From Deltaproteobacteria bacterium (GTDB lineage: Bacteria; Myxococcota; Kuafuiibacteriia; Kuafuiibacteriales; Kuafuiibacteriaceae), in assembly GCA_040218735.1 (NCBI GenBank), contig JAVJQW010000047.1, positions 1 through 64,000 of the forward strand: DNA of 64,000 nt, written 5' to 3'. A program made the translations under genes and the position numbers. Shown here one piece after another: positions 44,495 to 61,051 of the stretch (its first letter is position 1; the number at the start of each line of letters is the position of its first letter). The notes under the pieces are model-generated. The model was not told where the DNA came from. It searched no databases and saw only the letters and a list, made by a program, of their open reading frames with translations.

Positions 44495-44646
44495 AACCTC
44501 TGACCCGGGAGGATAACCAAACCCGCCCCCGCAAGCGAACGCCCGCGGGCGTCGATTCTCGGCCGACACACCAGGATACGCTTTGACCAGGATGTCGAGT
44601 CTACAAAGTCGGCAGAGGTTCAAGCAGGTGGTAGGTTTCGGACGGC

Positions 44647-46263
44647 ATGCAGCCCGTGTTCGGGAGACAACCGGGGTACGTCGTCTCGTACTGCCCCGTA
44701 GCCTCGGCACACGGGATGCGGGTGCTCGAGGAGGGCGGCAACGCCGTCGACGCGGCCGTCGCGACCGGCCTCGCGCTCGCCGTCACGTATCCCCAGGCCG
44801 GCAACATCGGCGGCGGTGGCTTCATGCTCATCGCGCCCCACAAGGAGCCGGTGAGTTTCCTCGACTACCGCGAGGTCGCACCGAAGAACATCAACCCGCA
44901 GGACTACCTCGTCGATGGACGTCGCGGCGAAGCGATGGTGCTCGGCGCAAAGTCCGCCGCCGTGCCCGGAACGATCGCCGGGTTTGCAAAGGCGCTCGAA
45001 ACCCACGGGACGATGTCGTGGGATCGCATCGTCGGGCAGATCGTCGACCTCGCCGAAAACGGCGTCATCATCACGTCGCGCCAGGCCGCCTATCTCAACG
45101 CATACCGCGAGACGCTCTCGCGCTTCGAATCCACACGTAAGGTCTTCGGCCGATCGATACTTCCGGCGACGCGCTTCCTTCAGCCGGACCTCGCGCAGAC
45201 GTTCCGCCGCCTCGCAGAACACGGACCACGCGACTTCTACCGCGGTCGACTCGCCGCGCTCCTCCTCGACGAGATCCGTCGCGGCGGCGGACCGATGACC
45301 CTGGACGACCTCGTCGAGTTCGAGGCGAAGTGGCGCGTCCCGTTCACGTGTGAGGCGTTCGGGCGCCGCATATGGACGGCGCCCTTCCCTTCCGGCGGCG
45401 GCCTCGTCGTGCACCTGACCCTGCGTATCCTCGACGGCCTCGGCTACGCTTCGCTCCCCCCACGTTCCCTCGAGCGCTACCAACTGTTGATCCGTGCGTT
45501 CCGCGTCGCGTTCTGGATGCGGCAAACCTACGCCGTCGATCCCGACTTCCTCACCGAAGAGCAGCAGCTGGAGATCGAGACCCTCCTCGAGTGTCCGATC
45601 ACCCGCTCGCAGCTCGAAGAGTGGGAGACAAAACTCCGCCAGGACAAACGGCTGCTCGAGAACGAAGCCGCCTACCTTAGGTCGCAGAACAAGAACACGA
45701 CCCACTTCAGCGTGCTCGACTCTGCAGGAAACGCAGTATCGAACACCTACAGCCTCAACACACTGTTTGGTTCGAAGCTGGTGGTGAACGGCGCCGGTTA
45801 CCTGCTCAACAACACGCTGGATGACTTTGGCGTCGGACGTGGGACGCCCAACTGGTACGGCATCCTGGACGGCGATCGAAACATGCTCACGGGGGGGCGC
45901 CGTCCGGTCGGTTCGATGGCGCCGACGATCGTCGAGGGTGACGGTGTACCAGAGCTCGTCATCGGCGGCTCTGGCGGGCCGACCATCCCCACGATGGTGG
46001 TTCAGACGCTTCTGGGCGTGGTCCTCGACGGCCGCTCGGTCGCGGCCGCCTTGGCCGAGCCCCGCGTGCACCACCAACACTCCAAGGCGGAGCTCCGCTT
46101 GGAGAACGCCGTCGCGCAGAGCATCCGGGATACACTTTTTCTCGACGACGACCCGCGCACTTTTGTCTCGCGAATCGGGATCGGCGCGGCGATTCATCGC
46201 GACCAGGACACGGGTCAGGTGCAGGCCGCGCTCGATCCACGCTTCGGTCTACACGGTCAGTGA
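44647..46263 (+). CDS. ggt: gamma-glutamyltransferase family Ntn hydrolase
   Basis: GGNAVDAAVA, GNIGGGGF, DYRE, nucleophile TTHFSVLD, GGSGG. No signal peptide. Confidence 0.9.
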   Translation: MQPVFGRQPGYVVSYCPVASAHGMRVLEEGGNAVDAAVATGLALAVTYPQAGNIGGGGFMLIAPHKEPVSFLDYREVAPKNINPQDYLVDGRRGEAMVLGAKSAAVPGTIAGFAKALETHGTMSWDRIVGQIVDLAENGVIITSRQAAYLNAYRETLSRFESTRKVFGRSILPATRFLQPDLAQTFRRLAEHGPRDFYRGRLAALLLDEIRRGGGPMTLDDLVEFEAKWRVPFTCEAFGRRIWTAPFPSGGGLVVHLTLRILDGLGYASLPPRSLERYQLLIRAFRVAFWMRQTYAVDPDFLTEEQQLEIETLLECPITRSQLEEWETKLRQDKRLLENEAAYLRSQNKNTTHFSVLDSAGNAVSNTYSLNTLFGSKLVVNGAGYLLNNTLDDFGVGRGTPNWYGILDGDRNMLTGGRRPVGSMAPTIVEGDGVPELVIGGSGGPTIPTMVVQTLLGVVLDGRSVAAALAEPRVHHQHSKAELRLENAVAQSIRDTLFLDDDPRTFVSRIGIGAAIHRDQDTGQVQAALDPRFGLHGQ

Positions 46264-46396
46264 TCAGCGCGGGTGTAGACCAGCGACTACAGGGTCGGCG
46301 TTCGAAAGTGGATCGGTCACACCCATCGCGGGCGGGCCGAAACTCCGTACATTGCGCCAAATATCAGGCTACATCAAAGTCGCCGCGGCCCCACCG

Positions 46397-47719
46397 ATGT
46401 ATGAACTGATGAGTGCGTCGCTCCCCGTCATGGCCGAACGCCCCTCGGCCGTGGCCAGACTTCGCGCGCGACTGGACCGTGAGCCGGGACACGTCGTCGC
46501 GTCGTTCCGCGCGCTACAGGAGCAACAACGTCAACGACGCGTGCTGTTTCGCGACGAGCTCCTCCCAGCTTCAATCGTTCCGCACTTCGTCGACCGAGAG
46601 GTTCACCAAGAGTGGGTACGACAACTCACCCAGTTGTTCGTGGATCTGGAAGCCATTGGCGCAGACTTCCTCGAATCACCGGACCTGTACGACACCCTCG
46701 GACTCCCCGATGCCGCGCGCGCTCTGATCGAAATCGATCCAGGTTACGACAAACTCGCCATCGTCTCGCGACTCGACATGGTGTGGGACGGCGACCGCTC
46801 CTACGTCTACGAGATCAACGTCGACAGCCCGGCGATGATGACGTTCACGGACTACCTCGAGGACATCATCCGCTCGCTCTTCCCGCTGCAGGGGCTCGAG
46901 GACGTCGACCCGATGCCACATCGCCGCACCACGGTGCTGCACGACGCTCTCATCGAGTGTTACCAACAGTGGGGCGGCAACAAGGCCTCGCCGACGATCG
47001 CGATCGTCGATTGGCGCGGCCAGAAGACCGCCGACGAGCTCGTTGCGACCGCCAATGAGTTTACGAAGCTGGGATCACCTTCGTTCGTTTGTGACCCGCG
47101 GGACCTGAAGATCGTCAACCGCAAGCTGACTTGCAACGGGCGCGAGATCGACATCGTTCAGCGCCGTGTGCTGTTCCCTGAGTTCCTGCAACGTCCGAAC
47201 GAAATCGCTACGCTCGTCGAGGCGTACCGACGCGGGCTCATATGTATGGCGAATCCACTTCGCTCGTACCTGCTCGGCAACAAGTGCCTCCTCACGCTCC
47301 TGAGCGACGAGCGCGGACGTTCTGCGGTTGGACGCCAGATCGTGCTTCCGACGGTCCGCGTCACGCCCGACAACGTCAATCGGTTCCGTCAACGCGAAGA
47401 CTGGGTCCTCAAGGGTGCACTCGGCCATGGCGGCCACGAAGTCCTCCTCGGCGTGGAGCAGTCCGACGAAGCGTGGGCCGAAGCGCTCGATATCGCCCAT
47501 CGCTCGTTGTGGGTCGCGCAGCGCTATCACCGACCGCCGAAGCTGACGGTCCCCATCATGACTTCGGACGGTATCCAGGAGCGCCCGTTGTGGGCGAACT
47601 GGAACCCGTTCTTCTTCGGCGGCCGGTTCGCGGGCGGAATGACGCGCGTGAGCTCGGAAGCCATCGTGAGCATCACCGCGAACGGCGCGTTGTTGCCCAC
47701 GCTCACGACGACCCCATGA
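46397..47719 (+). CDS. circularly permuted ATP-grasp ligase (glutathionylspermidine synthase-like)
   Basis: SRLD, YEINVDSPA, IAIVDW, GNKCLL, WVLKGALGHGGHEV, WVAQRY. Start uncertain. Confidence 0.75.
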   Translation: MYELMSASLPVMAERPSAVARLRARLDREPGHVVASFRALQEQQRQRRVLFRDELLPASIVPHFVDREVHQEWVRQLTQLFVDLEAIGADFLESPDLYDTLGLPDAARALIEIDPGYDKLAIVSRLDMVWDGDRSYVYEINVDSPAMMTFTDYLEDIIRSLFPLQGLEDVDPMPHRRTTVLHDALIECYQQWGGNKASPTIAIVDWRGQKTADELVATANEFTKLGSPSFVCDPRDLKIVNRKLTCNGREIDIVQRRVLFPEFLQRPNEIATLVEAYRRGLICMANPLRSYLLGNKCLLTLLSDERGRSAVGRQIVLPTVRVTPDNVNRFRQREDWVLKGALGHGGHEVLLGVEQSDEAWAEALDIAHRSLWVAQRYHRPPKLTVPIMTSDGIQERPLWANWNPFFFGGRFAGGMTRVSSEAIVSITANGALLPTLTTTP

Positions 47720-48852
47720 CCGATAAATCCCCCATCCTGCAGATTCGATATGTCGATCCCGACGAAGGTTGGGAAGGCTACCTCGTCATCGACAGCCTGG
47801 TGAATGGCGTATCGGGTGGCGGTCTTCGCGTCACGAAGACCGTCGACTTCGACGAGGTGCGCGGATTGGCGCGCGCCATGTCGCTGAAGAACCACGTGAT
47901 GGGTTTGCCGCTGGGCGGCGCGAAGTCGGCCGTACGCTACGACCCGGCGGCGCCCGAGCTCCCCGACGTACTCACGAAATTCATGCGGCACATCGGACCG
48001 ATCTGCCAACAGATGTACGGATGGGGCCCGGACATGAACACGCCCCCCGATCTCTGCGACAGCGTCGCGGACCGAGCGGGGATGAAGTCACGTCACATGG
48101 CGCTCGCCGAACGGTCGGAGCACGGGTACGCGGGCGTGGACAACTACAACCGAGCGCTTCGCTTGCAGGTCGGTCCGGTGACGATGACCGAAGCACGCAC
48201 GGCGATCGGCGTCGTCGGCGCCACGGAGTGCGCCGCGAAGCTCCTCGAGCTGGGCGGTCCACTGCGCGTCGCGATTCAGGGGTTCGGATCGGTGGGGAGC
48301 GGCGCGGTCTACTTCCTCGATCAACGCGGTCACCGCATCGTCGGGGTCGCAGACGCGGGCGGCGCATACAAAAAGGCCGACGGCCTGGATTTCGACACGC
48401 TGCTCGCAGCCAAGGGCGACAACCGAGAGATCGACCCGGCGAAGGTCCCCGAAGCACAGCGCGCCGGAGCTCCGGACGCCATCTTCGACGTGGAGTGCGA
48501 CGTGTTGATCCTCGCCGCGCTCTCCGGCGCGCTCACCGAGGAGCGCGCCCGCCGTGTCCGCGCGAAGATGGTGGTCGAGGGCGGAAACCTCGCCGTAACC
48601 GACGCCGGAGCGGCCGTCCTCGCGGAGCGCGGCATCCCGTCCGTGCCCGACTTCATCGTCAATGGTGGCGGCATCGGGATCGTCAGCGGCGTCATCCAGC
48701 TCGGTTGGAAGTGCGACGCGGACTACATCCTCGAGCAGATCGAATCCCGGGTTGCGGCCGCCACGGAGCGAACGGTTCACCACGCCAAGCAGCACGGCGG
48801 CACGCTGCGCGAGGCCGCGTACGCGTTGCTCCCGGAGCGACTGCGCCCCTGA
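47716..48852 (+). CDS. Glu/Leu/Phe/Val dehydrogenase family protein
   Basis: GGLRV, LARAMSLK, GGAKS, GPDMNT, QGFGSVG, EGGN, PDFIVNGGG. Confidence 0.88.
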   Translation: MTDKSPILQIRYVDPDEGWEGYLVIDSLVNGVSGGGLRVTKTVDFDEVRGLARAMSLKNHVMGLPLGGAKSAVRYDPAAPELPDVLTKFMRHIGPICQQMYGWGPDMNTPPDLCDSVADRAGMKSRHMALAERSEHGYAGVDNYNRALRLQVGPVTMTEARTAIGVVGATECAAKLLELGGPLRVAIQGFGSVGSGAVYFLDQRGHRIVGVADAGGAYKKADGLDFDTLLAAKGDNREIDPAKVPEAQRAGAPDAIFDVECDVLILAALSGALTEERARRVRAKMVVEGGNLAVTDAGAAVLAERGIPSVPDFIVNGGGIGIVSGVIQLGWKCDADYILEQIESRVAAATERTVHHAKQHGGTLREAAYALLPERLRP

Positions 48853-48859
48853 GCTCACC

Positions 48860-49600
48860 ATGATGGACATGGTCACGAAGCTGCTGGGGCCCTCGAGCCG
48901 AACCGAGAAGCCGCGAGGGCACGGGATCACGATCCTCCTCGACAAGGGCCTCGGCCCGAATGCCATCGACGACATCGGTACCGTCTGCGGCGCGCACTGT
49001 GACTACGCGAAGATCGCGTGGGGAAGCCTACTCATCTCGGGTGGCTTGGAAGCCAAGATCGCCGCGTACCGACGACACGGAATCGAACCCAAGATCGGTG
49101 GCACCCTCTTCGAGTACGCGTACGCCAACGGCAAGGTCGAGGACCTCCTCGTGCTCGTGCAGGAGTTGAAGATTCACGTCGAGATCTCCGACGGGGTCAT
49201 CAAGCTCCCACGTCAGGAGCGGCTCGCGCTCATCTCCAAGTTCGCCGCGCGGGTGAACGTCTTCTCGGAGCTGGGAGGCAAACTCTCGGCGCACGACCTC
49301 GACTTCGTCGCAGCGGCGAAGGAAGACCTCGCCGCTGGTGCAAAGAAGGTCGTCATCGAAGGCCGTGAAGTGGGTCCGGTCGGCAAACCCATCCGCACGG
49401 ATCTGGTCGACCGCCTCCTCGAAGCGTTGCCCGTCGAGGACATGGTCTTCGAATCACTCGAACGCCCCCAGCAGGTCTTCTTCATCAAACGCGTCGGCGC
49501 AAACGTGAACCTCGGGAACATCCTGCCGAAGGACCTCATGACGGTGGAGTGTTTCCGCCGCGGCCTGAAGGAACACACGTTCCTCGACAAGCCGGTCTGA
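48860..49600 (+). CDS. comA: phosphosulfolactate synthase
   Basis: KPRGHGITILLDKGLG, KIAWGS, GGTLFE, EISDG, IEGRE, NVNLGNI, ECFRRGL. Confidence 0.9.
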   Translation: MMDMVTKLLGPSSRTEKPRGHGITILLDKGLGPNAIDDIGTVCGAHCDYAKIAWGSLLISGGLEAKIAAYRRHGIEPKIGGTLFEYAYANGKVEDLLVLVQELKIHVEISDGVIKLPRQERLALISKFAARVNVFSELGGKLSAHDLDFVAAAKEDLAAGAKKVVIEGREVGPVGKPIRTDLVDRLLEALPVEDMVFESLERPQQVFFIKRVGANVNLGNILPKDLMTVECFRRGLKEHTFLDKPV

Positions 49601-49602
49601 CG

Positions 49603-50289
49603 ATGCACGTCGAGATCGTCCGCCCCCGCGACCTCGACGGTGAAGCCGACGTCGCGGTCGTGATCGACATCTTCCGCGCTACGAGCACCGCGACGACGCT
49701 GCTCGCGGAGCAGACGGACACGATGGCGATCGCAGCGACCCCGGCCGAAGTGCTCGCACACGGTGAAGCCGTCCCGCGCCCCCTGGTGTTCAGCGAGATC
49801 TCACAGCTCGACGTGCCGATGGACCGCGTCGACAACAGCCCCTCGGTGGCCAAGCAGCTGGAGCTCGCGGGCCGTACGCCCGTCCTCGTCACGACCAACG
49901 GCACTCGAACCGTCGACGCCGTCGCAGATCGCGTGAACACGATCCTGCTCGGGTCCTTCCTGAGCCTCTCCGCGCTGGTCCATCACCTTCGCTCGCTCGC
50001 GCCCAGACGGGTATTCGTGGTGCCCGCAGGGAGCTTCTCGCGCAATGCGAGCCACATCGAGGACGACCTCTGCGCCGAAGCCATCCGGACGCTCCTCGCC
50101 GACGGCGAACACGATCCCGAGGAGGTCGTCCGCGCCGTTCGCGCCTCCGAACGCTACGACCGCCGAGTCCGCGGCAACGCCAACTTCGAAGCCGACGCCG
50201 AGATCGCGCTGAGCCACGACATCTACACCGTGGTCCCCGTCGTCCGCCGCGAAAGCGGGTTGTTCTGGGCGACGCCGGCTACGACTTAG
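49603..50289 (+). CDS. comB: 2-phosphosulfolactate phosphatase
   Basis: VVIDIFRATST, NSPS, TTNGT, EDDLCA; directly after comA. Confidence 0.9.
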   Translation: MHVEIVRPRDLDGEADVAVVIDIFRATSTATTLLAEQTDTMAIAATPAEVLAHGEAVPRPLVFSEISQLDVPMDRVDNSPSVAKQLELAGRTPVLVTTNGTRTVDAVADRVNTILLGSFLSLSALVHHLRSLAPRRVFVVPAGSFSRNASHIEDDLCAEAIRTLLADGEHDPEEVVRAVRASERYDRRVRGNANFEADAEIALSHDIYTVVPVVRRESGLFWATPATT

Positions 50290-50656
50290 GTTTCCTGGAG
50301 ACGACCTGCATCCGCCAGCCGTCCGGATCCCGGAAGTTGGCGAGCGTACGGCCCGTGGGCTCGTAGAAGGTCGGCCCCGCCTCCAGCTTCAGTCCGTTGG
50401 CCTCCGCGTGCTCGGCGAAAGCGTCGGCGTCGTCGACCCGGTAGGCGATGTGATTCACACCGACGTTCTCTTCGCCCGCGACCTGGTGCAGCTCGATGAT
50501 GGGCTGGTCGCCGTCGCCGGGGAACTTCAGCTCCGCCGATGCGCCGTGGTGACTCGTCCGGCGAACCAGCTCGAACCCGAGCATCTGGTACCAAGCGATC
50601 TGCTGCTCCAGATCGCGCACGATGATTTCGATGTGATCGATTCCTAGGAATTTCAT
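50279..50656 (-). CDS. VOC/glyoxalase family protein
   Basis: IDHIEIIVRDLE, NHIAYRVDD, FRDPDGWRMQV. Confidence 0.85.
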   Translation of the reverse strand: MKFLGIDHIEIIVRDLEQQIAWYQMLGFELVRRTSHHGASAELKFPGDGDQPIIELHQVAGEENVGVNHIAYRVDDADAFAEHAEANGLKLEAGPTFYEPTGRTLANFRDPDGWRMQVVSRKPKS

Positions 50657-50675
50657 GAGTTCTCTTCCGTGATCT

Positions 50676-52526
50676 CTATCTGTGCCAGGCGCGGAGCCAG
50701 GAAGCGTATAGGTTCGGCGCTTCCTCGGCGCGCACGTCGTCGCGCTCGAAGAGCGGGCCATCCACGGTCCCGTCGGTGCGATCCACGATCCAACCACCCC
50801 GCGTGACCTGGGCGCCACGACGCCAGTCGACGCGCTTCACGAGTTTCTGCGGCACGGAGCGTACGACCGCGTGCAGCGCGGCGGCGTAGTCGGGCACCAC
50901 GACCTCCACGCCACGGTCAATCAACTCATCGACGAGCTCGTAGCGCGCGACCGCCGGGCCGATGACCACGCGAGAGACATCGTCCGGCACCTGCGCGTCG
51001 GGGTCATCGAGGACGAACGTCCCCGCCACCGCATCCGAAGAGAAGCCGTCGTGGAGGCGCCGCTGGAGCCCGGCCCTCGCAGACGCGAACCCACCCGGTC
51101 CGGGACCGGCCGCCGCGACGAGCGCCGAGACCACGACGTCGCCCCAATCGATCGGCCGAAGCTCGACGCCTTCGCGCCCGGCGATCTCCACTCGTACGCC
51201 GGGTGCGACGAAGACGTGGTCGAACGCGTATCCGCGATCGTCGAAGGTGATCTTCGCGACGCCGTCCGCCGCGACGATCGCATAAGCGGCGCCACCGGAG
51301 TGGAGCCACGTCGGCGTCCTCGCCGGCCACGCATCCTGCGGAACCACGATGACGTGCGGCACCGCGTGGTACTTCGCGACCATCGCCCGCGCCTGACGCG
51401 GCACCGTCGTGGGATCGATGGCAACGTTCGACGACGCCTCCGCGGCAAAGTTGTCGACCACCCGATCGAGCCCCTGCGCAGGCGGACGGTTCTTCACGTT
51501 ACCGAGCGCCTCCTCCACCGCCTCCTCCGGGATGCGCAGTCCTTCGAGACCGCCCATCGGTTCGGCGATGCGCGCGACCTCGGGGATGAGGGTGTCGACG
51601 TGCAGCTCGGCGTCGGCCGAAACCGCGTTGAGCTGCCGGAGAGTTCCGGAGTGCACCCGCGCGAGGCCCGTCTCGACGAACGTGGGATCGAAGCCTCGGC
51701 CGATCCACGGACGAACGATGTCGCGTCCGATCGCGTTCACCGCGCGCCGGTCGATCTGAGGTTCGAGACCAAGGCGCCCCTGCATGAGCGCGAGCAGGCG
51801 CTCGGTCTCGGCGTTGCCGGTGGCCCGCCCGAGGCCCTGCAGCGAGGCGTCGACGAGCGTCGCCCCCTCCTGGATAGCCGCGATGCTGTTCGCTGTCGCG
51901 AGGCCGAGGTTGTTGTGCCCGTGGAAGCCTACGCGCGCATCCGTCTTCGCGACGGCGGCCGCGACGTATCGTTTCACTTCGTCGGGCGTCCAACACCCTG
52001 CGGAGTCGACGAGGTAGACCCACGACGCTCCGGCCTCCGCCGCAGCGCGGCACTTGTCCGCCATCTGCTCGGGGGTTCGCAGGTAGCTCCGCATGAAGTT
52101 CACGCTGACGAGCAACCCACGCTTCGCCGCGTACTCGATCGACTTCATCGTCGCTTCGCGGTCGGGGATGCTCTTCGGCGTGCAGGCCATTCGGATGAAG
52201 TCGAGGCCATTGTCGATCGCCTCCTCGAAGATCTCTCTCAACACTGGCTCTTCGAAGACGTTCGCAGCGACGAGGGATCCGATCTTGGCGTTCGGCGCCG
52301 CGCGGCGTGCCGCGCGCATGTAGTCACCGTCGGTCTCGGCGGCGGGGACGCTCCCCGGCCACTGCTGTCCGCGAATGCCCCAGCCGTGTCCGATCTCGAT
52401 GTACTTGAGACCGGCCCGGTCGAGCAGACCGACGAGCAGCGCGAGGTCGGCCTTGGTGAATTGGAAGTCGACCTCGTAGCTGCCGTCACGAATCGTGGTC
52501 TCGAGTAGCTCCGCCTGCATGATCAA
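50676..52526 (-). CDS. DRE-TIM (4-hydroxy-2-oxovalerate aldolase-like) enzyme with long C-terminal extension
   Basis: TTIRDGSY, IEIGHG, YLVDSAG, GFHGHNNLGLA, GLGRATGN. Confidence 0.75.
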   Translation of the reverse strand: MIMQAELLETTIRDGSYEVDFQFTKADLALLVGLLDRAGLKYIEIGHGWGIRGQQWPGSVPAAETDGDYMRAARRAAPNAKIGSLVAANVFEEPVLREIFEEAIDNGLDFIRMACTPKSIPDREATMKSIEYAAKRGLLVSVNFMRSYLRTPEQMADKCRAAAEAGASWVYLVDSAGCWTPDEVKRYVAAAVAKTDARVGFHGHNNLGLATANSIAAIQEGATLVDASLQGLGRATGNAETERLLALMQGRLGLEPQIDRRAVNAIGRDIVRPWIGRGFDPTFVETGLARVHSGTLRQLNAVSADAELHVDTLIPEVARIAEPMGGLEGLRIPEEAVEEALGNVKNRPPAQGLDRVVDNFAAEASSNVAIDPTTVPRQARAMVAKYHAVPHVIVVPQDAWPARTPTWLHSGGAAYAIVAADGVAKITFDDRGYAFDHVFVAPGVRVEIAGREGVELRPIDWGDVVVSALVAAAGPGPGGFASARAGLQRRLHDGFSSDAVAGTFVLDDPDAQVPDDVSRVVIGPAVARYELVDELIDRGVEVVVPDYAAALHAVVRSVPQKLVKRVDWRRGAQVTRGGWIVDRTDGTVDGPLFERDDVRAEEAPNLYASWLRAWHR

Positions 52527-52531
52527 TCTTC

Positions 52532-53722
52532 CTATTGGCCGGCCGCCTCGCGAATCCAGGCGACGACCATCTCATCGGTCAGCAGGCCTTGCTTCGCTTC
52601 GGACTCCGTCTTGATTCGCGCCAGGACGTCGTTGCGCGCCGACGGAGACAGCTCCAGACCGACCTCCTTGGCCGCGAAGTCCACCGAGCTTCCGCCCGAG
52701 TGTTTGCCGAACACCAACTCATGGTGCCGCCCGATCATCGGCGGCGGGTACGGCTGATAACACTCCGGGTTCTTGAGGAGCCCGGAGATGTGAATGCCCG
52801 ACTCGTGGGTGAAACACAGCTTGCCCCCGACGGGTTTGTGCGCCGGCGGCTCGGTCCCCGAAGCGCGATGTACGGCGTTGCACAGGTCATGCAGCTTCGA
52901 GAGATCGATACCGGTGTCGAGCCCGTACTTGACGTGCAGCGCAACCACCAGCTCCTCGAGGCACGCGTTCCCGGTGCGCTCGCCAACGCCGTTGACGGTG
53001 ACCTGCGCCATCTTCGCTCCCGACTCCAGCGCCGCCAGCGTGTTCGCGAGCGCGAGGCCGAGGTCGTTGTGGAAGTGTGTGCCGATCGGAACGTCGAAGA
53101 GCGCGGTGAAGATCTCCACGATCTTCGTCGTCGCGGTGGGCGTGAGTATGCCGACGGTGTCGGCGAATACGAGGTAGTCGACGCCCGCATCGACCCCCGC
53201 CTGGAACAGCTTGATGATTCGACCGAGCGGCGCTCGGGAGCTGTCCTCGAGCCCGAGCGAAACGAGGGCGCCCTGCTCCTTGGCCTTCCGCACGCCCGCT
53301 TGAATTCGCTCGACCGCTTGCTCCTCGGTCCAACGCGTCTTCTCGAAGAGGTGCGTGTCCGAGCAGCCGAGGAACAGCGCGACGAGGTCCACGCCGGACT
53401 CCACCGTCTTCTCGATGTCGGCGTCGAGCATGCGACACAGGCCAGCGAGCTTGATGTCGAGCCCGGCCTTCGCGAGCCGGTTCACGCTGCTGAACTCATG
53501 CGGTGAAGCCGCGGGGAACCCAGCGTTCGTCCACGGGATACCCATCTCGGACATCATCGTCGCGAGCTCGAACTTCTCATCCGAGTTGAAGACGACACCC
53601 GGCGGCTGCTCGCCTTCGCGGAGCGTGTTGTCGTAGATGATCACGTCGCTCGCGATCGGCTTCGAGAACGCACGAGTGAGTACGTTCGCGGAGGAATCGG
53701 ACGGTCGCATGGGGATCTTCAT
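52532..53722 (-). CDS. homocitrate synthase-like acetyl-CoA:2-oxoacid condensing enzyme
   Basis: DNTLREGEQPPG, ADTVG, HFHNDLGLA, GVGERTGN, HESGIH, GKHSG; 396 aa, no LeuA regulatory domain. Confidence 0.85.
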   Translation of the reverse strand: MKIPMRPSDSSANVLTRAFSKPIASDVIIYDNTLREGEQPPGVVFNSDEKFELATMMSEMGIPWTNAGFPAASPHEFSSVNRLAKAGLDIKLAGLCRMLDADIEKTVESGVDLVALFLGCSDTHLFEKTRWTEEQAVERIQAGVRKAKEQGALVSLGLEDSSRAPLGRIIKLFQAGVDAGVDYLVFADTVGILTPTATTKIVEIFTALFDVPIGTHFHNDLGLALANTLAALESGAKMAQVTVNGVGERTGNACLEELVVALHVKYGLDTGIDLSKLHDLCNAVHRASGTEPPAHKPVGGKLCFTHESGIHISGLLKNPECYQPYPPPMIGRHHELVFGKHSGGSSVDFAAKEVGLELSPSARNDVLARIKTESEAKQGLLTDEMVVAWIREAAGQ

Positions 53723-54834
53723 CGGCCTGCCTCCAACCGTCCGACGACGGCGTTGGTGATCTCGACGGTCTTTGCGTCGCCACCCATGTCGCGAGGCTTC
53801 ACCTCCTGGAGCGCCCCGAGGAGCGCATCGATCAGGCGCGAGGCCTCCGCCGAGTAGCCGAGGTAACCCAACATCATCGAAGCCGAGAGGATCGCCGCCG
53901 CCGGGTTCGCGATGCCCTGACCCACGATATCCGGCGCGCTGCCGTGACAAGGTTCGAAGTAGACGACCTTCTCGCCGACGCCCGCGCTCGGCACGAGCGG
54001 CATCCCACCCATGACCTCCGACGCAACGTCGGAGAGGATGTCGCCGAACATGTTCATCGTGACGACGACGTCGAAGCTGTAGGGGCACGCGACCATGCGC
54101 CGCGCAGCCTCGTCGACGAACAACTCATCATAGGTCAGGCCCTGCGCTTCGATCTCCGGGATGCACTTGTCCGCGAAGAACCCACCCACCGTCTTGAGCA
54201 CGTTTCGCTTGTGGACGATCGTCACGTGACCGCGGCCGATGCCGAGCGTTTGGCGGTGTTTCGCGAGGCGCGCGGCGTAGCGCGCGATGCGCGTCGCCGC
54301 GCTCGCCGTACAGATGCGGATCGCGTAGACGCCGTCGTCCTCCGGCAGCGGGCGGCCGAGCGCGTCCTTAGAGTCCGGGTAACGCTCGCGGAGCTCCGCA
54401 AGCGAACCCTCGCGGCCCGGGTACATACCTTCCGTGAGCTCGCGAACGATGACGAGATCCGTGCGCCCCTCCCCCGTGATGCTGTCGATCCCGGGCAGAC
54501 TCGCGGACGGGCGGAGGTTCGCGTAGCACTGGCAGTGATAGCGGATGAAGCGCAGGATCTCGCGCGACTTCGCCTGCACGGCGCCGAACAACACCGCGTC
54601 GGATTCGACGATGTCGGTCTTCACTCGTTCGGGGAACGCGTCGCCGATCTCTTGCTCACCACGCTCCCCGTGGAGCGGCTCGCGAACTTCACAGTCCAGG
54701 CCGGTCGCACGGACACACGCGAGCGCGGACGCGGTGACCTCTGGCCCCACGCCGTCGCCGCCGATCACGGTGATGATCGGGCGCGCGGGTCGCTCGTCGA
54801 TCGGAACGATCCATCGCTCGGGTCCGAGTTTCAT
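53719..54834 (-). CDS. isocitrate/isopropylmalate dehydrogenase family protein
   Basis: GDGVGPEV, ANLRP, IVRELTEGMY, HKRNVL, NMFGDILSD, FEPCHGSAPDI, ANPAAAILS. Confidence 0.9.
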   Translation of the reverse strand: MKLGPERWIVPIDERPARPIITVIGGDGVGPEVTASALACVRATGLDCEVREPLHGERGEQEIGDAFPERVKTDIVESDAVLFGAVQAKSREILRFIRYHCQCYANLRPSASLPGIDSITGEGRTDLVIVRELTEGMYPGREGSLAELRERYPDSKDALGRPLPEDDGVYAIRICTASAATRIARYAARLAKHRQTLGIGRGHVTIVHKRNVLKTVGGFFADKCIPEIEAQGLTYDELFVDEAARRMVACPYSFDVVVTMNMFGDILSDVASEVMGGMPLVPSAGVGEKVVYFEPCHGSAPDIVGQGIANPAAAILSASMMLGYLGYSAEASRLIDALLGALQEVKPRDMGGDAKTVEITNAVVGRLEAGR

Positions 54835-55481
54835 CGCGCCGCCTCCTCGCGATCCAAGGCCCACGGGCGCGCCTTCTTCGCGTTTGCCTCGTAGTCGGCG
54901 ATCTCGTCTGCGTACTGCAGCGTGAGCGCGACGTCGTCGAGCCCGTTCACCAGGCAGTGCTTTCGGAAGTCATCGATCTCGAAGGTGTGCTTCGCGCCGT
55001 CCGGCGCCGTCACGGTTTGGTTCGGCAGGTCCACGTGCACGGTCGCGCCCGGGGAGGCTTCGAGCTGGGCCCGCAACCCGTCGCAGACCTCCTTCGCGAG
55101 GCGCACGGCGAGCACGCCGTTCTTCGAGCAGTTGTTGTAGAAGATGTCGCCGAAGCTCGGCGCGATCACACAACGGAAGCCGACGTGGACGGGTGCGCTC
55201 GTCGTGTCCGCGAGCGCCCACACCGCACTCTCGCGCGACGACCCGCACCCGAAGTTCGTGTCCGCCACGATGATGCGCGCTTCACGGAACGGCGCTTGGT
55301 TGAGCGGGAACTCGGGGCGTTCGTTCCCGGCGTCGTCGTAGCGCATGTCGTGGAACGCAAACTTACCGAGCCCGAACGAGCGCGGCTTGCTCAGGAAACG
55401 CGCGGGAATGATGCGGTCGGTGTCGACGTCGCGGAACCCGAGCGGCGCGGCGACGGCCTCGAGGACTTCGAACTTCTCCAT
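54831..55481 (-). CDS. leuD: 3-isopropylmalate dehydratase small subunit
   Basis: DVDTDRIIPARFL, NFGCGSSRE, SFGDIFYNN, GLDDVALTL. Confidence 0.9.
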   Translation of the reverse strand: MEKFEVLEAVAAPLGFRDVDTDRIIPARFLSKPRSFGLGKFAFHDMRYDDAGNERPEFPLNQAPFREARIIVADTNFGCGSSRESAVWALADTTSAPVHVGFRCVIAPSFGDIFYNNCSKNGVLAVRLAKEVCDGLRAQLEASPGATVHVDLPNQTVTAPDGAKHTFEIDDFRKHCLVNGLDDVALTLQYADEIADYEANAKKARPWALDREEAAR

Positions 55482-55485
55482 GGTC

Positions 55486-56898
55486 TCAGCTCCTCTCCAT
55501 GCCGCGGACGTCCGTCAGGCGCCCGGTGACCGCGGCGGCCGCGGCCATGATCGGGCTGACGAGATGCGTGCGGCCTCCCTTGCCCTGTCGCCCCTCGAAG
55601 TTGCGGTTCGAGGTGGAAGCGCAACGCTCGCCCGCGGAGATCGTGTCGCCGTTGAGGCCGAGACACATCGAACATCCGGAGTCGCGCCACTCGAAACCCG
55701 CCTCCACGAAGACGCGGTCGATACCCTCCGCTTCCGCGGCGACGCGCACGAGCTCGGAGCCCGGGACGATCATCGCGGGGATCCGAGCCTTCTTGCCCTT
55801 CACGATCGAAGCGGCAGCGCGCAGGTCTTCGATACGACCGTTCGTGCAGCTCCCTATGAAGACGCGGTCGACCTTCACATCGGTCAGCGCCGTCCCCGGC
55901 TCGAGACCCATGTAGTCGAGGGCGCGCTGCATTCGCGCGCGGACGCTCGGGTCGTCGGAGCTCGCCGGGTCCGGCACCTTCTCGTCGATGCCGACCGTGT
56001 CCTCGGGGCTCGTCCCCCAAGTCACCGACGGTGCAAGTGAGCTTGCATCGAGCGCGACCTCGCGATCGAACTTCGCGCCTTCGTCGGAGTAGAGCTTCCG
56101 CCACTGGGCGACCGCTGCGTCCCACTGGTCCGGCCCGGGCGCGTACGGACGACCGCGCACGTACTCGAACGTCTTGTCGTCGGGCGCGACCATCCCCATT
56201 CGGCCGCCGCCTTCGATGGTCATGTTGCAGATCGTCATCCGCGCCTCCATCGAGAGCGATCGGATAGTGCTACCCGCGAACTCGATCGCGTGACCCACGC
56301 CTCCCGTCGCGCCGATGTGGCGAATCAAGGCGAGCACGACATCCTTGCCACCGACACCGAACGGGAGGTCGCCGTCGATCGTGATGCGCATGGTGTTGGG
56401 GCGGCGTTGCCACAGCGTTTGCGTGGCGAGCACGTGCCCGACCTCCGACGCGCCGATACCGAACGCGATGGCCCCGAACGCGCCGTGGGTCGACGTGTGT
56501 GAGTCGCCGCAGACGACGGTCATCCCCGGGAGCGTGAGGCCCTGCTCGGGTCCGACCACGTGGACGATGCCCTGGTCGGGGTCGTTCATCCCGAACAAAC
56601 GAATGCCGTGCGCCTTGGAGTTCTCGTGGAGCGCCTCCACCTTCTTGCGGCGGTCGACGTCCGTGATCGTCGAGAGGCCGGCCGCGCGACCCGTGGTGGG
56701 TACGAAGTGGTCCGCGCAGGAGAACGTCTGCTTCGGACGCGCCACCGGACGGTGTGCGACCGCGAGATCCTCGAAGGCGTGGGAGGAACCTTCGTGCAGG
56801 AGGTGGCAGTCGATGTAGAGCAGCGACGCTCCGTCGTCACGGGTCGTGATGACGTGGGCGTTCCACAGCTTCTCGAAGAGTGTCTTCGGTGTCGTCAT
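55486..56898 (-). CDS. leuC: 3-isopropylmalate dehydratase large subunit
   Basis: [54 protein letters not shown]. Confidence 0.92.
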
Positions 56899-56900
56899 GT

Positions 56901-58211
56901 TCAGTTCGCCTCCAGCTCGTGCAGCGTGGACTCGATGGCGTCGAGGCCCTCGTCCAGCTCGTCCGTCGTGATGCAGAGCGGCGGCACCACGAAGAGATTC
57001 GACCAGCGCATCAGCGCGTAGACCCCGCGCTTCTTCAGTCCGCCGACGACCGACTTGGCGGCGGCGCTCAGCGGAGCGCCGACCGGTGACAACGGTGCGT
57101 CGGCCTCGGGATCCTTCAACTCGATCGCGGCGAAGAGCCCCCTGCGGCGTAGCTCGCGGATCGAAGGATGATCGCGTTTCATCGCGTCGACGCGAGCCTC
57201 GAGGTGGTCGCCGACCCTCGCTGCGTTATCCGCGAGCCGTTCGTCGACGATGACTTCCACGTTTGCCTTGGCCACGCCGAGGCAGTACGCGTGCGCGTTG
57301 TAGGTGAGGCCACCCCAGTAGACGTGATCGTCGAAGTGGCGCGCGATGCGTTCGTGAATCGCGACCCCGCCGAGCGGTACGTAGGAGCTCGTGAGGCCCT
57401 TCGCCATCGTGACGAGGTCGGGGACGAAACCTTCGTGCTCGAACGCGAACATCTTCCCGGTGCGCCCGAAGCCGGTCATGACTTCGTCGCAGATCATCAG
57501 GATGCCGTGGCGCTCCAACAGCGCCTTGACCTTCGCAAGGTAGCCGGTCGGCGGCGGAAGTATCCCGTTGGAGCCGGGCACGACCTCGACGATCATCGCG
57601 GCGAAGGTGTTCGGGCCCGCGTTCTCGATCGTGGTCTCCAGCGCGGAGACCGCGCGGTCCACGTAGTCATCGGGTGTACCGCCCGACTCGAAAGAGAGTG
57701 ACCAAGGATCGTCGACGTGCACGACACCGGGCAGCGGCGGTACCCGTTCCCTTCGACTGTCGCCGCTGATCGCGAGCATCCGATGCGTCGCACCGTGGTA
57801 GCTGCGATGACGCGCGAGGATCTTCTGGCGCCCCGTGAACTGGTGCGCCATGCGAATCGCGTTTTCGTTGGCGTCGGCACCCGCGAGCGTGAAGAAGAAG
57901 GTGCCCAGCTCCTCGGGGAGGAGAGTGGCGAGCAGCTCCGAGAGCTCCGCGCGTTGCCGAGTCACCGCGCTCGGCGCGCAATAGACGAGGTCGTTGGTCG
58001 CGGCCCGCATCGCCGCGAGCACGCGCGGGTGTGCGTGCCCGATGTGGACACTCATGAGTTGGCTGTTGAGATCGAGGTACCGCTTTCCGTCTGCGGTCGT
58101 GAAATGCACGCCCTCCGCCCGCTCGATCACCATCGGGTCCAGCGCGCCGCGCGCCGACCAGGAGAACAGCGTTCGCTGCTTGCAGACGTCGCGTATGGCT
58201 TCGGGCGTCAT
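56901..58211 (-). CDS. class III PLP aminotransferase (omega-amino acid/taurine-type)
   Basis: [54 protein letters not shown]. Confidence 0.88.
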
Positions 58212-58939
58212 TCACCCTCCGGCGTGATGCGGCCCTCGACGTACCCACGAACCCATCCGGCCATCGTGCGTACGGCTTCGGTCTTCGACGCCAGGACGTG
58301 CCACCGATCGACGGGCGCGTTGGTGTCCATGCGGCGCCCGACGACCATCCGCTCCACGCCGCAGAACCGCTGCACCGTGGCGGCGTTCGTGCCGGTGGTG
58401 GGATCCGCGTCCTCCACGACGCTCATGCAGACGCCGAGCGTCCGAACGCCTTCGAGCTTCGCGGCGGCGAGCGCCATGATGGCGAGCGTCGCGCCCTGGG
58501 CGTGATCGCGCCCGAGCAACAAGAGCGGCGCGTTCAGGCTCGTCGCGATGGCGAGGTTGGAGTGCTGCCAGGTCAGCGGCGTCGTCACGCCGCCGGCGCC
58601 CTCGACGAGGACGACGTCGGCTTCGTCGGCGGCGCGTTCCATGTCGCCGATCATCTGTGACCAGTCGATCTCGATGCCCTCGACTTGTGCGGCCATCGCA
58701 GGGGAGAGGGACGAACGGAGACGGACGAGCGCTCGCGGCGGCCAGGTTTGCCCCGTCGCAGCGGCGATGAGCTCACCATCCTCTTGGCCCTCGGGGGAAC
58801 GGTCGCACCATCCCTCCACCGCTTTGATCGCGATGACCTTCAGGCCGTCATCGATGAGCGCGCGCGCCAGCGCTCGGATGAGCAACGTCTTTCCGACGTT
58901 CATCCCGGTGCCGCCGATGAAGACGTGTTTCTTGCCCAT
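58208..58939 (-). CDS. bioD: dethiobiotin synthase-like ATP-dependent ligase
   Basis: FIGGTGMNVGKT, SPAMAA, VLVEGAGG. Confidence 0.75.
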   Translation of the reverse strand: MGKKHVFIGGTGMNVGKTLLIRALARALIDDGLKVIAIKAVEGWCDRSPEGQEDGELIAAATGQTWPPRALVRLRSSLSPAMAAQVEGIEIDWSQMIGDMERAADEADVVLVEGAGGVTTPLTWQHSNLAIATSLNAPLLLLGRDHAQGATLAIMALAAAKLEGVRTLGVCMSVVEDADPTTGTNAATVQRFCGVERMVVGRRMDTNAPVDRWHVLASKTEAVRTMAGWVRGYVEGRITPEGE

Positions 58940-58944
58940 GACGC

Positions 58945-59529
58945 TCAGCCCTCCTCGGGGGCGTCGGCGAGCGCCTGCCGAACGTCTGCGCACGACTTGA
59001 AGAGGTGCGGCATCGCCTCGTCAGGGTTGTAGTCGCTGATGATCGGGTGGGTTCGAAGTGTTCCGAATACCGGTCCGGGTTGGGCGATGAGCTCGGGGAA
59101 GCGACCGGCGAACGTGTCGAGATCGTCGAAGTCCTCGGCGACCGAAAAACCGCAGCCCTTGGCGATGGTGGAGAAGGACAAGCCGCCCCGGTTGGGGATG
59201 GGTTGTCCGCCCGTGCCCGCGTAGACGCCGTTCTCGAGTACGAACACGTAGAGGTTCTGCACGCCGCTCCCGACGATCGTCACGAGGCTGCCGAGGTTCA
59301 TCAGGAGGCTGCCGTCCCCATCGAAAACGATGACCTTGCGATCGGGGCGCCCGAGCGCGATGCCGAGTCCGAGGGAGGTGCCCTTGCCCATCGCGCCGCG
59401 GAAGAGGATGTCGAGCTCGGGCCGCTGGCTCACATCGAACCAGGGTTGGCGTGCGGTCTGGCAGGGGATGACGACGGCGTCGCCGCGGTAGCGCTCGACG
59501 ACCTCGAAGGCCGCGCTGACTTCCATCAT
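58945..59529 (-). CDS. comE: sulfopyruvate decarboxylase beta subunit-like (ThDP-binding)
   Basis: GAMGKGTSLGLGIAL, DGDGSLLMNLGSL, ENGVYAGTGGQP. Confidence 0.8.
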   Translation of the reverse strand: MMEVSAAFEVVERYRGDAVVIPCQTARQPWFDVSQRPELDILFRGAMGKGTSLGLGIALGRPDRKVIVFDGDGSLLMNLGSLVTIVGSGVQNLYVFVLENGVYAGTGGQPIPNRGGLSFSTIAKGCGFSVAEDFDDLDTFAGRFPELIAQPGPVFGTLRTHPIISDYNPDEAMPHLFKSCADVRQALADAPEEG

Positions 59530-60062
59530 GACGAGGCTCCTGATGCCTTCGGGACGCTGGCGTCGTCCGGGAGCAGCAGCGCGACGGGGCGCCCGGTCTC
59601 CTCGGCGATCCCGTACGCCTCGGGGATCCGGTCGAGGTCCTCGTCGGTGACCAAGGGTATGGAGGTCGCGCGCCAGGCGTCGAGGATCGGCTGCGTGTAG
59701 ATACCCGCGGAATCTCGCGCTTGTCCGTCGAGAACCCATCCGCGGTATCCGATCATCATCACCAGGGGCAGACGTGCGTAATAAGTGAACCCTCGGATCG
59801 AGTCGCCTGACTCGAACATGCCGGTGTTCTGGATCATGACCATCGGCTTCTTTCCGCCGATGATGAGTCCGGTGGCGATCGCCATTGTCTCACCTTCGCG
59901 ACAGACGGGGACGAGCGTGAGCTCGGGCGCGGCGGTGAGTAGGTTGTGAATCGTGTCACGCTCGGTGCCGGGGAGATACGGAATGTGCGTCACGCCGGCT
60001 TCGACGATCTTGCGAACGACCTTCTCCGGCGTCACGTGAAATGCATGTGTTTTCGATACCAT
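59526..60062 (-). CDS. comD: sulfopyruvate decarboxylase alpha subunit-like
   Basis: VPVCREGETMAIATG, MIQNTG, LPLVMMIGYRG; translationally coupled to comE. Confidence 0.8.
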   Translation of the reverse strand: MVSKTHAFHVTPEKVVRKIVEAGVTHIPYLPGTERDTIHNLLTAAPELTLVPVCREGETMAIATGLIIGGKKPMVMIQNTGMFESGDSIRGFTYYARLPLVMMIGYRGWVLDGQARDSAGIYTQPILDAWRATSIPLVTDEDLDRIPEAYGIAEETGRPVALLLPDDASVPKASGASS

Positions 60063-60111: not shown

Positions 60112-61035
60112 TCAGAAGACGTCCAAAGTGAGACCGCCGCCGAAGATGTGGGCGTTGCGTGTGTTGGTTCCACCCACGAACACACGCGCCAGCGCGTAGA
60201 CCGCGAGGTTGTCGAGGATACGGTACGAGGCACCGCCGCCGATGAGAAATACGTTCTCGTTGAGCAGCGAGTCATGAAAATGCTGCACCGCCGTCGCGTT
60301 GTCTTCCCACTCGAGGAAATTCAACCCACCGTGGGTGATGCGAATGTCGGTACCGATGTTCACCTCGAGGTCGGGGATGATGAAGTACCCGACCATCGCG
60401 CTGATATCGCTGTAGTTCTGGTTGATGTCGCTCGTCGCGGCGGAGTCCGTCTTGTACCGCTCGGACAGCGTGAAGTCGTAGCGCGCGTGGAAGTAGAGGT
60501 TCGGGAGGATCGGGTCGAGGAAGCGGCCGACGGACAGTCCGAAGTGCCCGCGGGTCAAACCGCGCCCCGCCGCCGCGAAGCCCTGCGTCTCGTAGCCGTG
60601 CGACGGGATGCTCGCCCCCACCTGCACGGCGAGCGCGATCGGATCCTCGAGGATCGCGTACCGCGCGCCCAACCGGAAGTCCTGCAGGACGAAGTGCAGG
60701 TCTCCGTCGTCGTAGCGACCGTGGGGCGTGAGGAACGCACCGTCCCCAGGGTCGCCGTTGAACTGGACCGCGAGCAACGGCACCGACGCGCTGACCGCGA
60801 GCCCCGGAATGGGGGTCACGTACTCGGCACCGAGCTGAAACGACTGGTGCGTGGTCGGGACGTCGTCGAGCTGCTGCCCGTCGGTTTCGATGATCGCCGA
60901 GGAGGGCGCGAAGTTGTAACCCACCGAGACGGAGAGTGAGTTCGGGGCACCGACCCAGGCTTGCGCGTAGGCGGATCCGCCCGTGCAGAGGGCGAGGAGC
61001 CCGCAGGAGAATGCGGCGAGGTTTCGTGGGTTCAT
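60112..61035 (-). CDS. putative outer-membrane beta-barrel protein
   Basis: Signal peptide AYA-QAW, alternating amphipathic beta pattern, C-terminal Phe. Confidence 0.6.
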   Translation of the reverse strand: MNPRNLAAFSCGLLALCTGGSAYAQAWVGAPNSLSVSVGYNFAPSSAIIETDGQQLDDVPTTHQSFQLGAEYVTPIPGLAVSASVPLLAVQFNGDPGDGAFLTPHGRYDDGDLHFVLQDFRLGARYAILEDPIALAVQVGASIPSHGYETQGFAAAGRGLTRGHFGLSVGRFLDPILPNLYFHARYDFTLSERYKTDSAATSDINQNYSDISAMVGYFIIPDLEVNIGTDIRITHGGLNFLEWEDNATAVQHFHDSLLNENVFLIGGGASYRILDNLAVYALARVFVGGTNTRNAHIFGGGLTLDVF

Positions 61036-61051
61036 ATCCAACTTGGGGCAG

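Follow-up and report, generated by a model that had tools for sequence, protein, structure and literature searches.

Few natural products carry a carbon-bound sulfonate, and mining tools that look for nonribosomal peptide synthetase (NRPS) and polyketide synthase (PKS) genes cannot see the clusters that make them. Enzymes of the ComA and ComB families together convert phosphoenolpyruvate (PEP) and sulfite to sulfolactate. For phosphonates, the sections of PMC8942020 on chain extension describe two routes: an FrbC-type synthase, an aconitase, and an isocitrate dehydrogenase convert phosphonopyruvate to 2-oxo-4-phosphonobutyrate, and a split Ppd with the HMGL-like aldolase RhiG carries phosphonoacetaldehyde on to 2-keto-4-hydroxy-5-phosphonopentanoate. 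The 2-sulfoacetyl group of misaugamycin-B has been proposed to come from a cassette of a ComA homologue and a glyoxalase (relevant section of PMC9136965), and, according to part of a paper that names Cp1B, no NRPS takes part in assembling E-64 from epoxysuccinic acid. Here, we describe a locus at 44647 to 61095 of a 64,000-nucleotide stretch of DNA (the window) from an uncultured marine myxobacterium (GenBank assembly GCA_040218735.1, contig JAVJQW010000047.1, positions 1 to 64,000) that carries ComA- and ComB-family genes beside genes for a ComDE-type decarboxylase, 2-oxoacid elongation, and amide ligation. An earlier note on this DNA knew of no described cluster of the same composition; consistent with that statement, a search of full texts gave no paper in which ComA/ComB occur in one cluster with both a ComDE-type decarboxylase and a homocitrate synthase (HCS)/LeuCD/dehydrogenase set, with supplementary cluster tables outside the search.

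The window is C28:1-64000 of genome G000 (11.6 Mb, 70 contigs, 96.5% complete, ~67% G+C). Mechanical lists of open reading frames (ORFs) are noisy at this G+C content, and frames were fixed by codon-position GC and inspection of start codons. All 15 genes that the earlier note had placed at 44647-60062 are present, each matching its stated family in profile searches, and they form two convergent, tightly packed operons with no NRPS or PKS gene at the locus, as the note had claimed. Five genes lie on the plus strand (44647-50289) and 11 on the minus strand (61095 down to 50279), counting a barrel gene upstream of comD (Table 1). The note had overlooked this gene, a flanking pentapeptide-repeat gene, and a possible RhiG-like aldolase route after the decarboxylase. 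The minus-strand genes are joined by four ATGA start/stop overlaps, with 2 to 19 nucleotides at the other junctions, and the convergent operons overlap by 11 nucleotides (comB stop, 50287-50289; VOC stop, 50279-50281). Contigs from two other public runs span this convergent junction (X12 record, 49914-50457; X4 record, 50040-50744), and it is therefore not an assembly chimera. The locus is best read as two modules, A on the plus strand and B on the minus strand.

Our leading interpretation, held with roughly even confidence and drawn from gene content and distribution, is that this is a biosynthetic locus for at least one small sulfonated metabolite, made without an NRPS or PKS by two functionally linked yet evolutionarily separable modules. 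The metabolite is probably an undescribed one. In the pathway that we infer, from its substrates and step order to the link between modules and the product, ComA would add sulfite to PEP and ComB would dephosphorylate the result to (R)-sulfolactate. An ATP-grasp ligase and a leaderless, probably cytoplasmic gamma-glutamyltransferase (GGT) may then make or trim a gamma-glutamyl-type amide conjugate, and an amino-acid dehydrogenase, added in G000, may convert a sulfonated 2-oxoacid to the corresponding amino acid, for example cysteate or homocysteate, and back. Oxidation of sulfolactate would yield sulfopyruvate, the input of module B; an isopropylmalate/homoisocitrate-dehydrogenase-like (IPMDH-like) protein is the candidate enzyme, suggested because its family acts on (2R)-hydroxyacids. 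With the HCS-like enzyme and LeuCD, the same protein would extend sulfopyruvate by one carbon to 2-oxo-4-sulfobutanoate. A split thiamine pyrophosphate (TPP) decarboxylase would convert a sulfonated 2-oxoacid to a sulfo-aldehyde, which a taurine-type aminotransferase would turn into taurine or homotaurine and/or a DmpG/RhiG-like aldolase would condense with pyruvate or oxaloacetate. A BioD-like ligase, a VOC protein, and the barrel could serve coupling, tailoring, and outer-membrane passage, roles that, like that of the pentapeptide-repeat protein, are guesses. By analogy, the two phosphonate routes (PMC8942020, same sections) offer exact precedents for both extensions. The reading of the earlier note is partly supported, as a new combination of sulfonate entry chemistry with phosphonate-style extension logic, each known in itself.

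Table 1. Genes of the two convergent operons and the flanking pentapeptide-repeat gene, by window position (GA, gathering cut-off)
Feature	Position	Strand	Profile matches and remarks
Pentapeptide-repeat protein	43262..44710	-	PF00805 88 bits; divergent from GGT
GGT family enzyme	44647..46263	+	PF01019 419 bits; TIGR00066 372 bits (cut-off 358)
Glutathione-synthetase/GspS-like circularly permuted ATP-grasp ligase	46397..47719 (alternative start 46409)	+	PF03738 GSP_synth 45 bits (GA 29)
Glu/Leu/Phe/Val-type amino-acid dehydrogenase	47716..48852	+	PF00208 121 bits; PF02812 51 bits
ComA-family phosphosulfolactate synthase	48863..49600	+	PF02679 201 bits (GA 25); TIGR03849 179 bits, under cut-off 280
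ComB-family 2-phosphosulfolactate phosphatase	49603..50289	+	PF04029 105 bits (GA 26); under all NCBIfam equivalog cut-offs
VOC/glyoxalase-fold protein, last gene of module B	50279..50656	-	PF00903 61 bits
Long-form DmpG/RhiG-type (HMGL-like) aldolase, 614 aa	50676..52520	-	NF006049 214 bits (cut-off 229)
HCS/isopropylmalate-synthase-like 2-oxoacid:acetyl-CoA condensing enzyme	52532..53722	-	PF00682 219 bits; PF22617
IPMDH-like dehydrogenase	53719..54834	-	PF00180 247 bits
LeuD-type small subunit, aconitase-family isomerase	54831..55481	-	TIGR00171 211 bits (cut-off 116)
LeuC-type large subunit, aconitase-family isomerase	55486..56898	-	TIGR00170 690 bits (cut-off 560)
Class III (omega) aminotransferase, taurine-aminotransferase-like	56901..58211	-	PF00202 278 bits
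BioD-like P-loop ATP-dependent ligase	58208..58939	-	PF13500 81 bits; TIGR00347 74 bits, under cut-off 83
Split TPP decarboxylase beta (ComE/RhiF-like)	58945..59529	-	TIGR03846 92.2 bits (cut-off 221), TIGR03297 91.9 bits, both under cut-off
Split TPP decarboxylase alpha (ComD/RhiE-like)	59526..60062	-	TIGR03845 67 bits (cut-off 148), TIGR03297 45 bits, both under cut-off
Outer-membrane beta-barrel protein with signal peptide	60112..61095	-	PF13505 weak, 23 bits; leader visible in sequence

The sulfonate assignment draws on the enzymes present and on one gene that is missing. PEP mutase (TIGR02320) had no match in G000 or in the relative G018, which leaves the sister decarboxylase family without its usual substrate; for G000, the chemistry is thus most naturally read as that of sulfonates, not phosphonates. 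A phosphonate cluster in disguise was considered and is ruled out in both genomes on the same ground. By family, the split decarboxylase falls with ComDE and Ppd, and the characterised enzymes of that family use sulfo- or phosphonopyruvate (as stated in part of a review). The only solved structure close to it is that of the split RhiEF-type enzyme 9iz3 (alpha subunit, sole PDB match 9iz3_A, E 5e-12; beta subunit, 9iz3_B, E 4e-12). The best PDB match of the aminotransferase is 6jix, a taurine:2-oxoglutarate aminotransferase (E 6e-82; next match, 3.5e-71). A paralogue of this gene with 48% identity lies elsewhere in G000, at C42:335306-336595. A second class III aminotransferase gene is paired with a BioD-like gene at C41:15615-17425, a pair that is probably the real bioA-bioD.

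Within module A, ComA and ComB are each single copy in G000. The GGT carries a TTH motif at residue 351, whose threonine we take to be the N-terminal nucleophile, and its N terminus has no hydrophobic leader or signal peptide, which fits a cytoplasmic, biosynthetic role. The ATP-grasp protein has no match in the PDB by sequence. Its AlphaFold2 (AF2) model (pLDDT 88) matched glutathione synthetases and GspS in Foldseek at a probability of 1.00 with only 12 to 19% identity, the top matches being human and yeast glutathione synthetase, homoglutathione synthetase, GspS, YjfC/YgiC, and Cp1B (TM 0.6 to 0.72); we presume that Cp1B is the ligase joining epoxysuccinic acid to an amino acid. Its neighbors in the Atlas were clusters of CP-ATP-grasp/GSP_synth proteins. 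The amino-acid dehydrogenase gene is joined to the ATP-grasp gene by an ATGA overlap. Codon-position GC set its frame; the longest mechanical ORF (47769-48863) lies in the wrong frame and has no Pfam match. The protein is very divergent (best NCBIfam matches, glutamate dehydrogenases at 141 bits versus a cut-off of 620; PDB glutamate dehydrogenases, E 5e-34), and a homologue with 45% identity adjoins the ATP-grasp gene in locus L041.

In module B, the gene that the earlier note called aldolase-like does encode an aldolase domain, with residues 4 to 340 matching the 4-hydroxy-2-oxovalerate aldolases 4jn6 and 1nvm in the PDB (E 1e-34 to 1e-37). That description is corrected here to a 614-residue protein whose C-terminal ~270 residues match no family in Pfam and nothing in the Atlas and have low pLDDT in the model. 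R11, D12, H200, and H202 are invariant across 14 long-form homologues, and D12, H200, and H202 are presumably metal ligands. Long forms (566 to 692 residues) made up ~14 of 53 matches in a search of 5.8 billion proteins, including P0002 (89% identity) and P0003 (48% identity). Among 80 of 524 confirmed metagenomic aldolase loci whose context was viewed, the DmpG-like genes had just 35 to 44% identity and no module B neighborhood was found (VOC gene, 1/80; class III aminotransferase gene, 1/80; ComD/ComE/LeuCD, 0/80). The BioD-like ligase matches dethiobiotin synthetases in the PDB (E 2e-8), and its gene is paired with the aminotransferase gene in G018 too. The VOC protein has 61% identity to its counterpart in module B of G018; a VOC-family paralogue elsewhere in the window (19116-19493) has 36% identity to it. 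The barrel gene is probably the first gene of module B: it lies 50 bp upstream of comD, and a homologue (48% identity) lies directly upstream of comD in G018.

To follow the two modules through related genomes (G-numbers other than G000; L-numbers denote their loci), we scanned 185,579 species genomes by alignment for the ATP-grasp protein and counted ComA, ComE, and HCS in 401 genomes sampled from the phylum. The ATP-grasp scan returned 11 loci, all in Myxococcota metagenome-assembled genomes, with ComA at 7/11, GGT at 5/11, and ComB at 5/11 (4 by tblastn and 1 by Pfam); in L043 and L044, a HAD hydrolase and an MFS transporter take the place of ComB. Two genomes of the phylum sample, G212 and G342, hold the four-gene set ComA-GGT-ComB-ATP-grasp. 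GGT is kept beside ComA in G006, G018, G212, G342, L042, L045, and L049, and ComA adjoins the ATP-grasp gene in 10 Myxococcota genomes, G000 included. The cassette of ComA, ComB, GGT, and the glutathione-synthetase-like ligase is itself an uncharacterised unit, conserved separately in at least 8 genomes. Other partners were seen around this core: L045 adds a RimK-like ATP-grasp protein, a phosphodiesterase, and an MscS channel, and L049 adds three Haem_oxygenase_2-like iron enzymes, a sigma-54 activator, and a GSA-aminomutase-like class III aminotransferase.

Module B is rare, found so far in two genomes that each also carry module A. In the phylum sample, ComA occurs in 7/401 genomes, a close ComE in 2/401 (G000 and G018; six others have homologues of just 34 to 42% identity), and HCS at E ≤ 1e-90 in 5/401. 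Both genomes with a close ComE also carry the rare ComA. All four genomes with a cluster-type HCS (52 to 60% identity; G000, G006, G018, and G403) have ComA adjoining the ATP-grasp gene, and the distance between HCS and module A is 5 to 20 kb in G006 and about 35 to 45 kb, on the same contig, in G403. Module B of G018 runs barrel-ComD-ComE-LeuC-LeuD-IPMDH-HCS-aldolase-VOC-BioD-like-aminotransferase, nearly the order of G000, at 48 to 65% identity.

Several observations weigh against a single sulfonate pathway through both modules. ComC/Ldh_2 sulfolactate dehydrogenase (PF02615) had no match in the 96.5%-complete G000, the same search being positive in five control genomes, so the step from sulfolactate to sulfopyruvate is without an assigned enzyme. 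The two decarboxylase subunits fall under the ComDE and Ppd cut-offs, and the beta subunit scores alike on the sulfopyruvate (92.2 bits) and phosphonopyruvate (91.9 bits) decarboxylase profiles, so that the scores do not tell the two substrates apart. Only 2 of the 10 genomes in which ComA adjoins the ATP-grasp gene have a ComE homologue (G000 and G018), and only 4 have a cluster-type HCS (≥52% identity; G000, G006, G018, and G403). In G018, the modules lie on different contigs, at least ~15 kb apart, and G276 has a related LeuC-LeuD-HCS set (HCS, 47 to 48% identity) with no ComA at E ≤ 1e-20, in an uninformative context of chemotaxis genes, SDRs, an amidohydrolase, and an EamA transporter. 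Module A is clearly an autonomous cassette that works without module B, and the two operons do not form a single conserved unit; the earlier note had read them as one cluster. Moreover, the relatives are kin within one phylum, and these co-occurrence counts overstate independence. The note had also cast the locus as the sulfonate mirror of phosphonate logic; the lack of PEP mutase and the taurine-type aminotransferase support that view, and the lack of a ComC-type gene for the sulfopyruvate step tells against it.

The alternative that these observations favor most is that two unrelated systems happen to be adjacent, module A making a sulfolactate conjugate and module B elongating, decarboxylating, and aminating ordinary 2-oxoacids (e.g., pyruvate or 2-oxoglutarate) so as to give an amine or an unusual amino acid, and the BioD-like protein forming a ring or an amide. 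In addition to module A standing without ComE in 8 of 10 genomes, the split contigs of G018, and the G276 set, this alternative gains from the decarboxylase, HCS-like, and IPMDH-like proteins all lying under every equivalog cut-off, which leaves room for other substrates. However, chance adjacency sits poorly with the presence of a ComA found in 7/401 genomes in both genomes that have module B, or with ComA adjoining the ATP-grasp gene in 4/4 genomes with a cluster-type HCS. The family of the decarboxylase and the closeness of the aminotransferase to taurine aminotransferase likewise argue for sulfonated substrates, and a conserved barrel gene occurs beside both modules, with further homologues close to genes of module A or of the elongation set in G006, L043, and L049. 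Taken together, we consider this alternative possible but doubtful.

A variant locus in G006 (L009 + L023, G006:C3:752000-791800) shows another arrangement around the same genes. It opens with ComA-GGT-ComB-pentapeptide repeat-ATP-grasp-class I/II aminotransferase, followed ~5 to 20 kb on by genes for IPMDH-like, LeuC, LeuD, EthD-domain, LutB-like Fe-S, FAD, and HCS-like proteins, and then by a family III CoA-transferase, an oxalyl-CoA-decarboxylase-like TPP enzyme, and the same outer-membrane barrel; ComDE is absent from it. Such a composition suggests that the same scaffold here leads into other downstream chemistry. Xsc-type desulfonation was considered for the TPP enzyme and rejected, the protein being oxalyl-CoA-decarboxylase-like or 2-hydroxyacyl-CoA-lyase-like (424 bits versus 145 bits for Xsc).

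We also considered whether module B might be catabolic, taking up and breaking down taurine, homotaurine, or sulfolactate-type sulfonates with the aminotransferase and aldolase running in the degradative direction. The nearest aminotransferase with a solved structure is a taurine:2-oxoglutarate enzyme that works in degradation, aldolases of the DmpG type classically belong to catabolism, and an outer-membrane barrel could serve uptake. Against this, a synthase, an isomerase, and a dehydrogenase together form a chain-building motif (chain-extension sections of PMC8942020), ComA and ComB are biosynthetic, and no desulfonating enzyme was matched within the locus, the whole genome not having been searched for Xsc or SuyAB. 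A catabolic module B is in our view very unlikely.

Whether the elongation set could simply be plain leucine (or citramalate/isoleucine) genes embedded by chance was addressed by comparison with other leu genes. LeuC and LeuD score above the NCBIfam equivalog cut-offs and are the sole copies in G000, and G018 has ilvC yet only the LeuC of the operon, all of which favors leucine synthesis; in G018, module B may contribute to leucine synthesis or have a dual role. In contrast, the HCS-like and IPMDH-like proteins are under all leuA, leuB, nifV, and Aks cut-offs; the HCS-like protein falls under every NCBIfam equivalog cut-off (nifV, 353 bits versus 463; leuA_bact, 253 versus 599), as does the IPMDH-like protein for LEU3_arch (278 bits versus 410) and leuB (180 versus 353). 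HCS-like orthologues have 58 to 60% identity in G018 and G006 and 27 to 38% to synthases of leu operons, and the IPMDH-like protein has 57 to 58% identity in G018 and G006. In addition, G000 has no ilvC above the cut-off (best 23 bits versus 226) and no match to ilvD, both searches being positive in 14/14 control genomes, and start/stop overlaps tie the elongation genes to the decarboxylase, aminotransferase, and aldolase genes.

The LeuC phylogeny points the same way. In a maximum-likelihood tree of 18 LeuCs, the cluster LeuC groups with those of G018, G006-C3, G403-C5, and G276 at 100/98, apart from the 12 LeuCs of leu operons. Among the relatives, 15/41 have a LeuC; of 14 LeuC neighborhoods viewed in them, 13 are leu-type operons (44 to 56% identity to the window LeuC), and the 14th, on contig C3 of G006, has 63% identity and adjoins ComA-module genes. 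G006 thus holds both the cluster-type set (C3) and a normal leu operon (contig C10). Because of the separate LeuC clade, the two sets in G006, the absence of ilvC and ilvD, and the sub-cut-off HCS-like and IPMDH-like proteins, the HCS/LeuCD/IPMDH set is taken as a dedicated paralogous lineage, and a housekeeping role is largely rejected; we regard chance-embedded leucine genes as highly improbable. The earlier note would have abandoned its proposal had the genome no other leuCD, and literally it has none; we do not take this as decisive, given the missing ilvC and ilvD, the presence of LeuC in only 15/41 relatives, and the two sets of G006. In L147 (G403:C5:148000-167900), the cluster-type HCS beside LeuC-LeuD aligns as two overlapping pieces (residues 9 to 154 and 112 to 394), which suggests a frameshift or a broken gene.

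Synthesis of coenzyme M by the archaeal route, with or without a coenzyme-B-like chain, for coenzyme M-dependent metabolism is scarcely credible: homologues of ComA, ComB, ComD, and ComE are all present and the second-best NCBIfam match of the IPMDH-like protein is the methanogen homoisocitrate dehydrogenase AksF2 (247 bits versus a cut-off of 540), but G000 has no ComC/Ldh_2 gene, its best match to the coenzyme M synthase MMP16 (TIGR03287) reaches 26 bits against a cut-off of 364, and a taurine-type aminotransferase points to an amine rather than a thiol.

Returning to a sulfonated metabolite as the product, a bolder form of that proposal, speculative and in our judgment unlikely, would make the locus the first sulfonate counterpart of the phosphonate antimetabolites. 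PEP and sulfite would stand in for PEP mutase, and sulfopyruvate would be both elongated in the FR-900098 style and decarboxylated and aldol-extended in the rhizocticin style to a sulfonated analogue of glutamate, gamma-aminobutyrate (GABA), or phosphohomoserine. The ligases and GGT would build a "Trojan-horse" amide, the barrel would export it, and the pentapeptide-repeat protein might serve as an accessory or immunity factor. If true, ComA/ComB entry combined with the phosphonate playbook would give genome searches a signature by which to find sulfonate metabolites. It would direct attention to uncultured marine Myxococcota as a possible source of new antimetabolites of glutamate, GABA, or amino acids, and would offer enzymes for sulfonated building blocks (a sulfonate-accepting synthase, a decarboxylase, an aldolase, and ligases).

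The surroundings of the two operons were also inspected. The pentapeptide-repeat gene is a possible accessory gene whose true start is probably downstream of 44710; homologues occur inside module A of G006 (47% identity) and, more weakly (31% identity), adjoining the ATP-grasp gene in L041. Farther out, the flank at 36910-41318 (a 697-residue protein of no family, a DUF1501 protein, and an OmpA-family lipoprotein) is syntenic between G000 and G006 (L023 1-4177), and the cluster therefore occupies a homologous chromosomal site in two genera. Beyond the barrel gene lies an uncharacterised ORF of 340 residues (61114-62136). A SpoIIE/PP2C phosphatase gene that also encodes a Y_Y_Y sensor domain (62448-63947) shares the strand of the cluster and lies downstream of it. 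No sulfur-related gene was seen in 10 scanned ORFs (window upstream of 43 kb and the gene at 61117-62145). Scans for sigma-70-like promoters (0 sites versus 2.0 expected) and terminator-like sites (14 versus 9.7 expected) were uninformative, and none of the 20 public runs listed for the locus is an RNA run. The DNA runs carry the habitat labels sponge, aquaculture, biofloc, biofilm, and seawater, to which we give no weight.

Compared with described systems, the locus shares parts with several and its whole with none that we found. The ATP-grasp ligase resembles glutathione synthetase, glutathionylspermidine synthetase (GspS), and Cp1B in predicted fold and by its match to Pfam GSP_synth but differs from them widely in sequence. 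The misaugamycin genes misNOPQ (acyl carrier protein [ACP], acyl-CoA ligase, ComA homologue, and glyoxalase), as presented in the relevant section of PMC9136965, similarly recruit a ComA homologue and a glyoxalase/VOC protein for a sulfonated building block; whereas they feed an NRPS glycopeptide via an ACP, the locus described here has neither an ACP nor an NRPS and instead carries ComB, a decarboxylase, the elongation set, and ligases. With the archaeal coenzyme M pathway, the locus has in common the ComA and ComB families and a two-subunit TPP decarboxylase of the ComDE/Ppd family. It departs from that pathway in having no ComC, no coenzyme M synthase above cut-off, and a decarboxylase under the ComDE cut-offs, and in its myxobacterial host, where the neighbors of these genes include an aminotransferase, an elongation set, an aldolase, and ligases.

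The phosphonate clusters, as far as the sources cover them, supply the remaining parallels. Like the rhizocticin cluster (RhiEF, RhiG, and ATP-grasp ligases), the locus combines a split TPP decarboxylase, with 9iz3 as its best solved match, and an HMGL-like aldolase in one operon, with an ATP-grasp gene nearby; unlike it, the locus lacks PEP mutase and has the 614-residue long form of the aldolase, whose likeness to RhiG is one of family and not of direct sequence comparison. FR-900098-type clusters (chain-extension sections of PMC8942020) share with it a synthase, an aconitase-family isomerase, and a beta-decarboxylating dehydrogenase, which together could lengthen an anionic analogue of pyruvate to one of 2-oxoglutarate. 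Here, the isomerase is of the split LeuCD type, PEP mutase is absent, and ComA and ComB replace the C-P-forming step.

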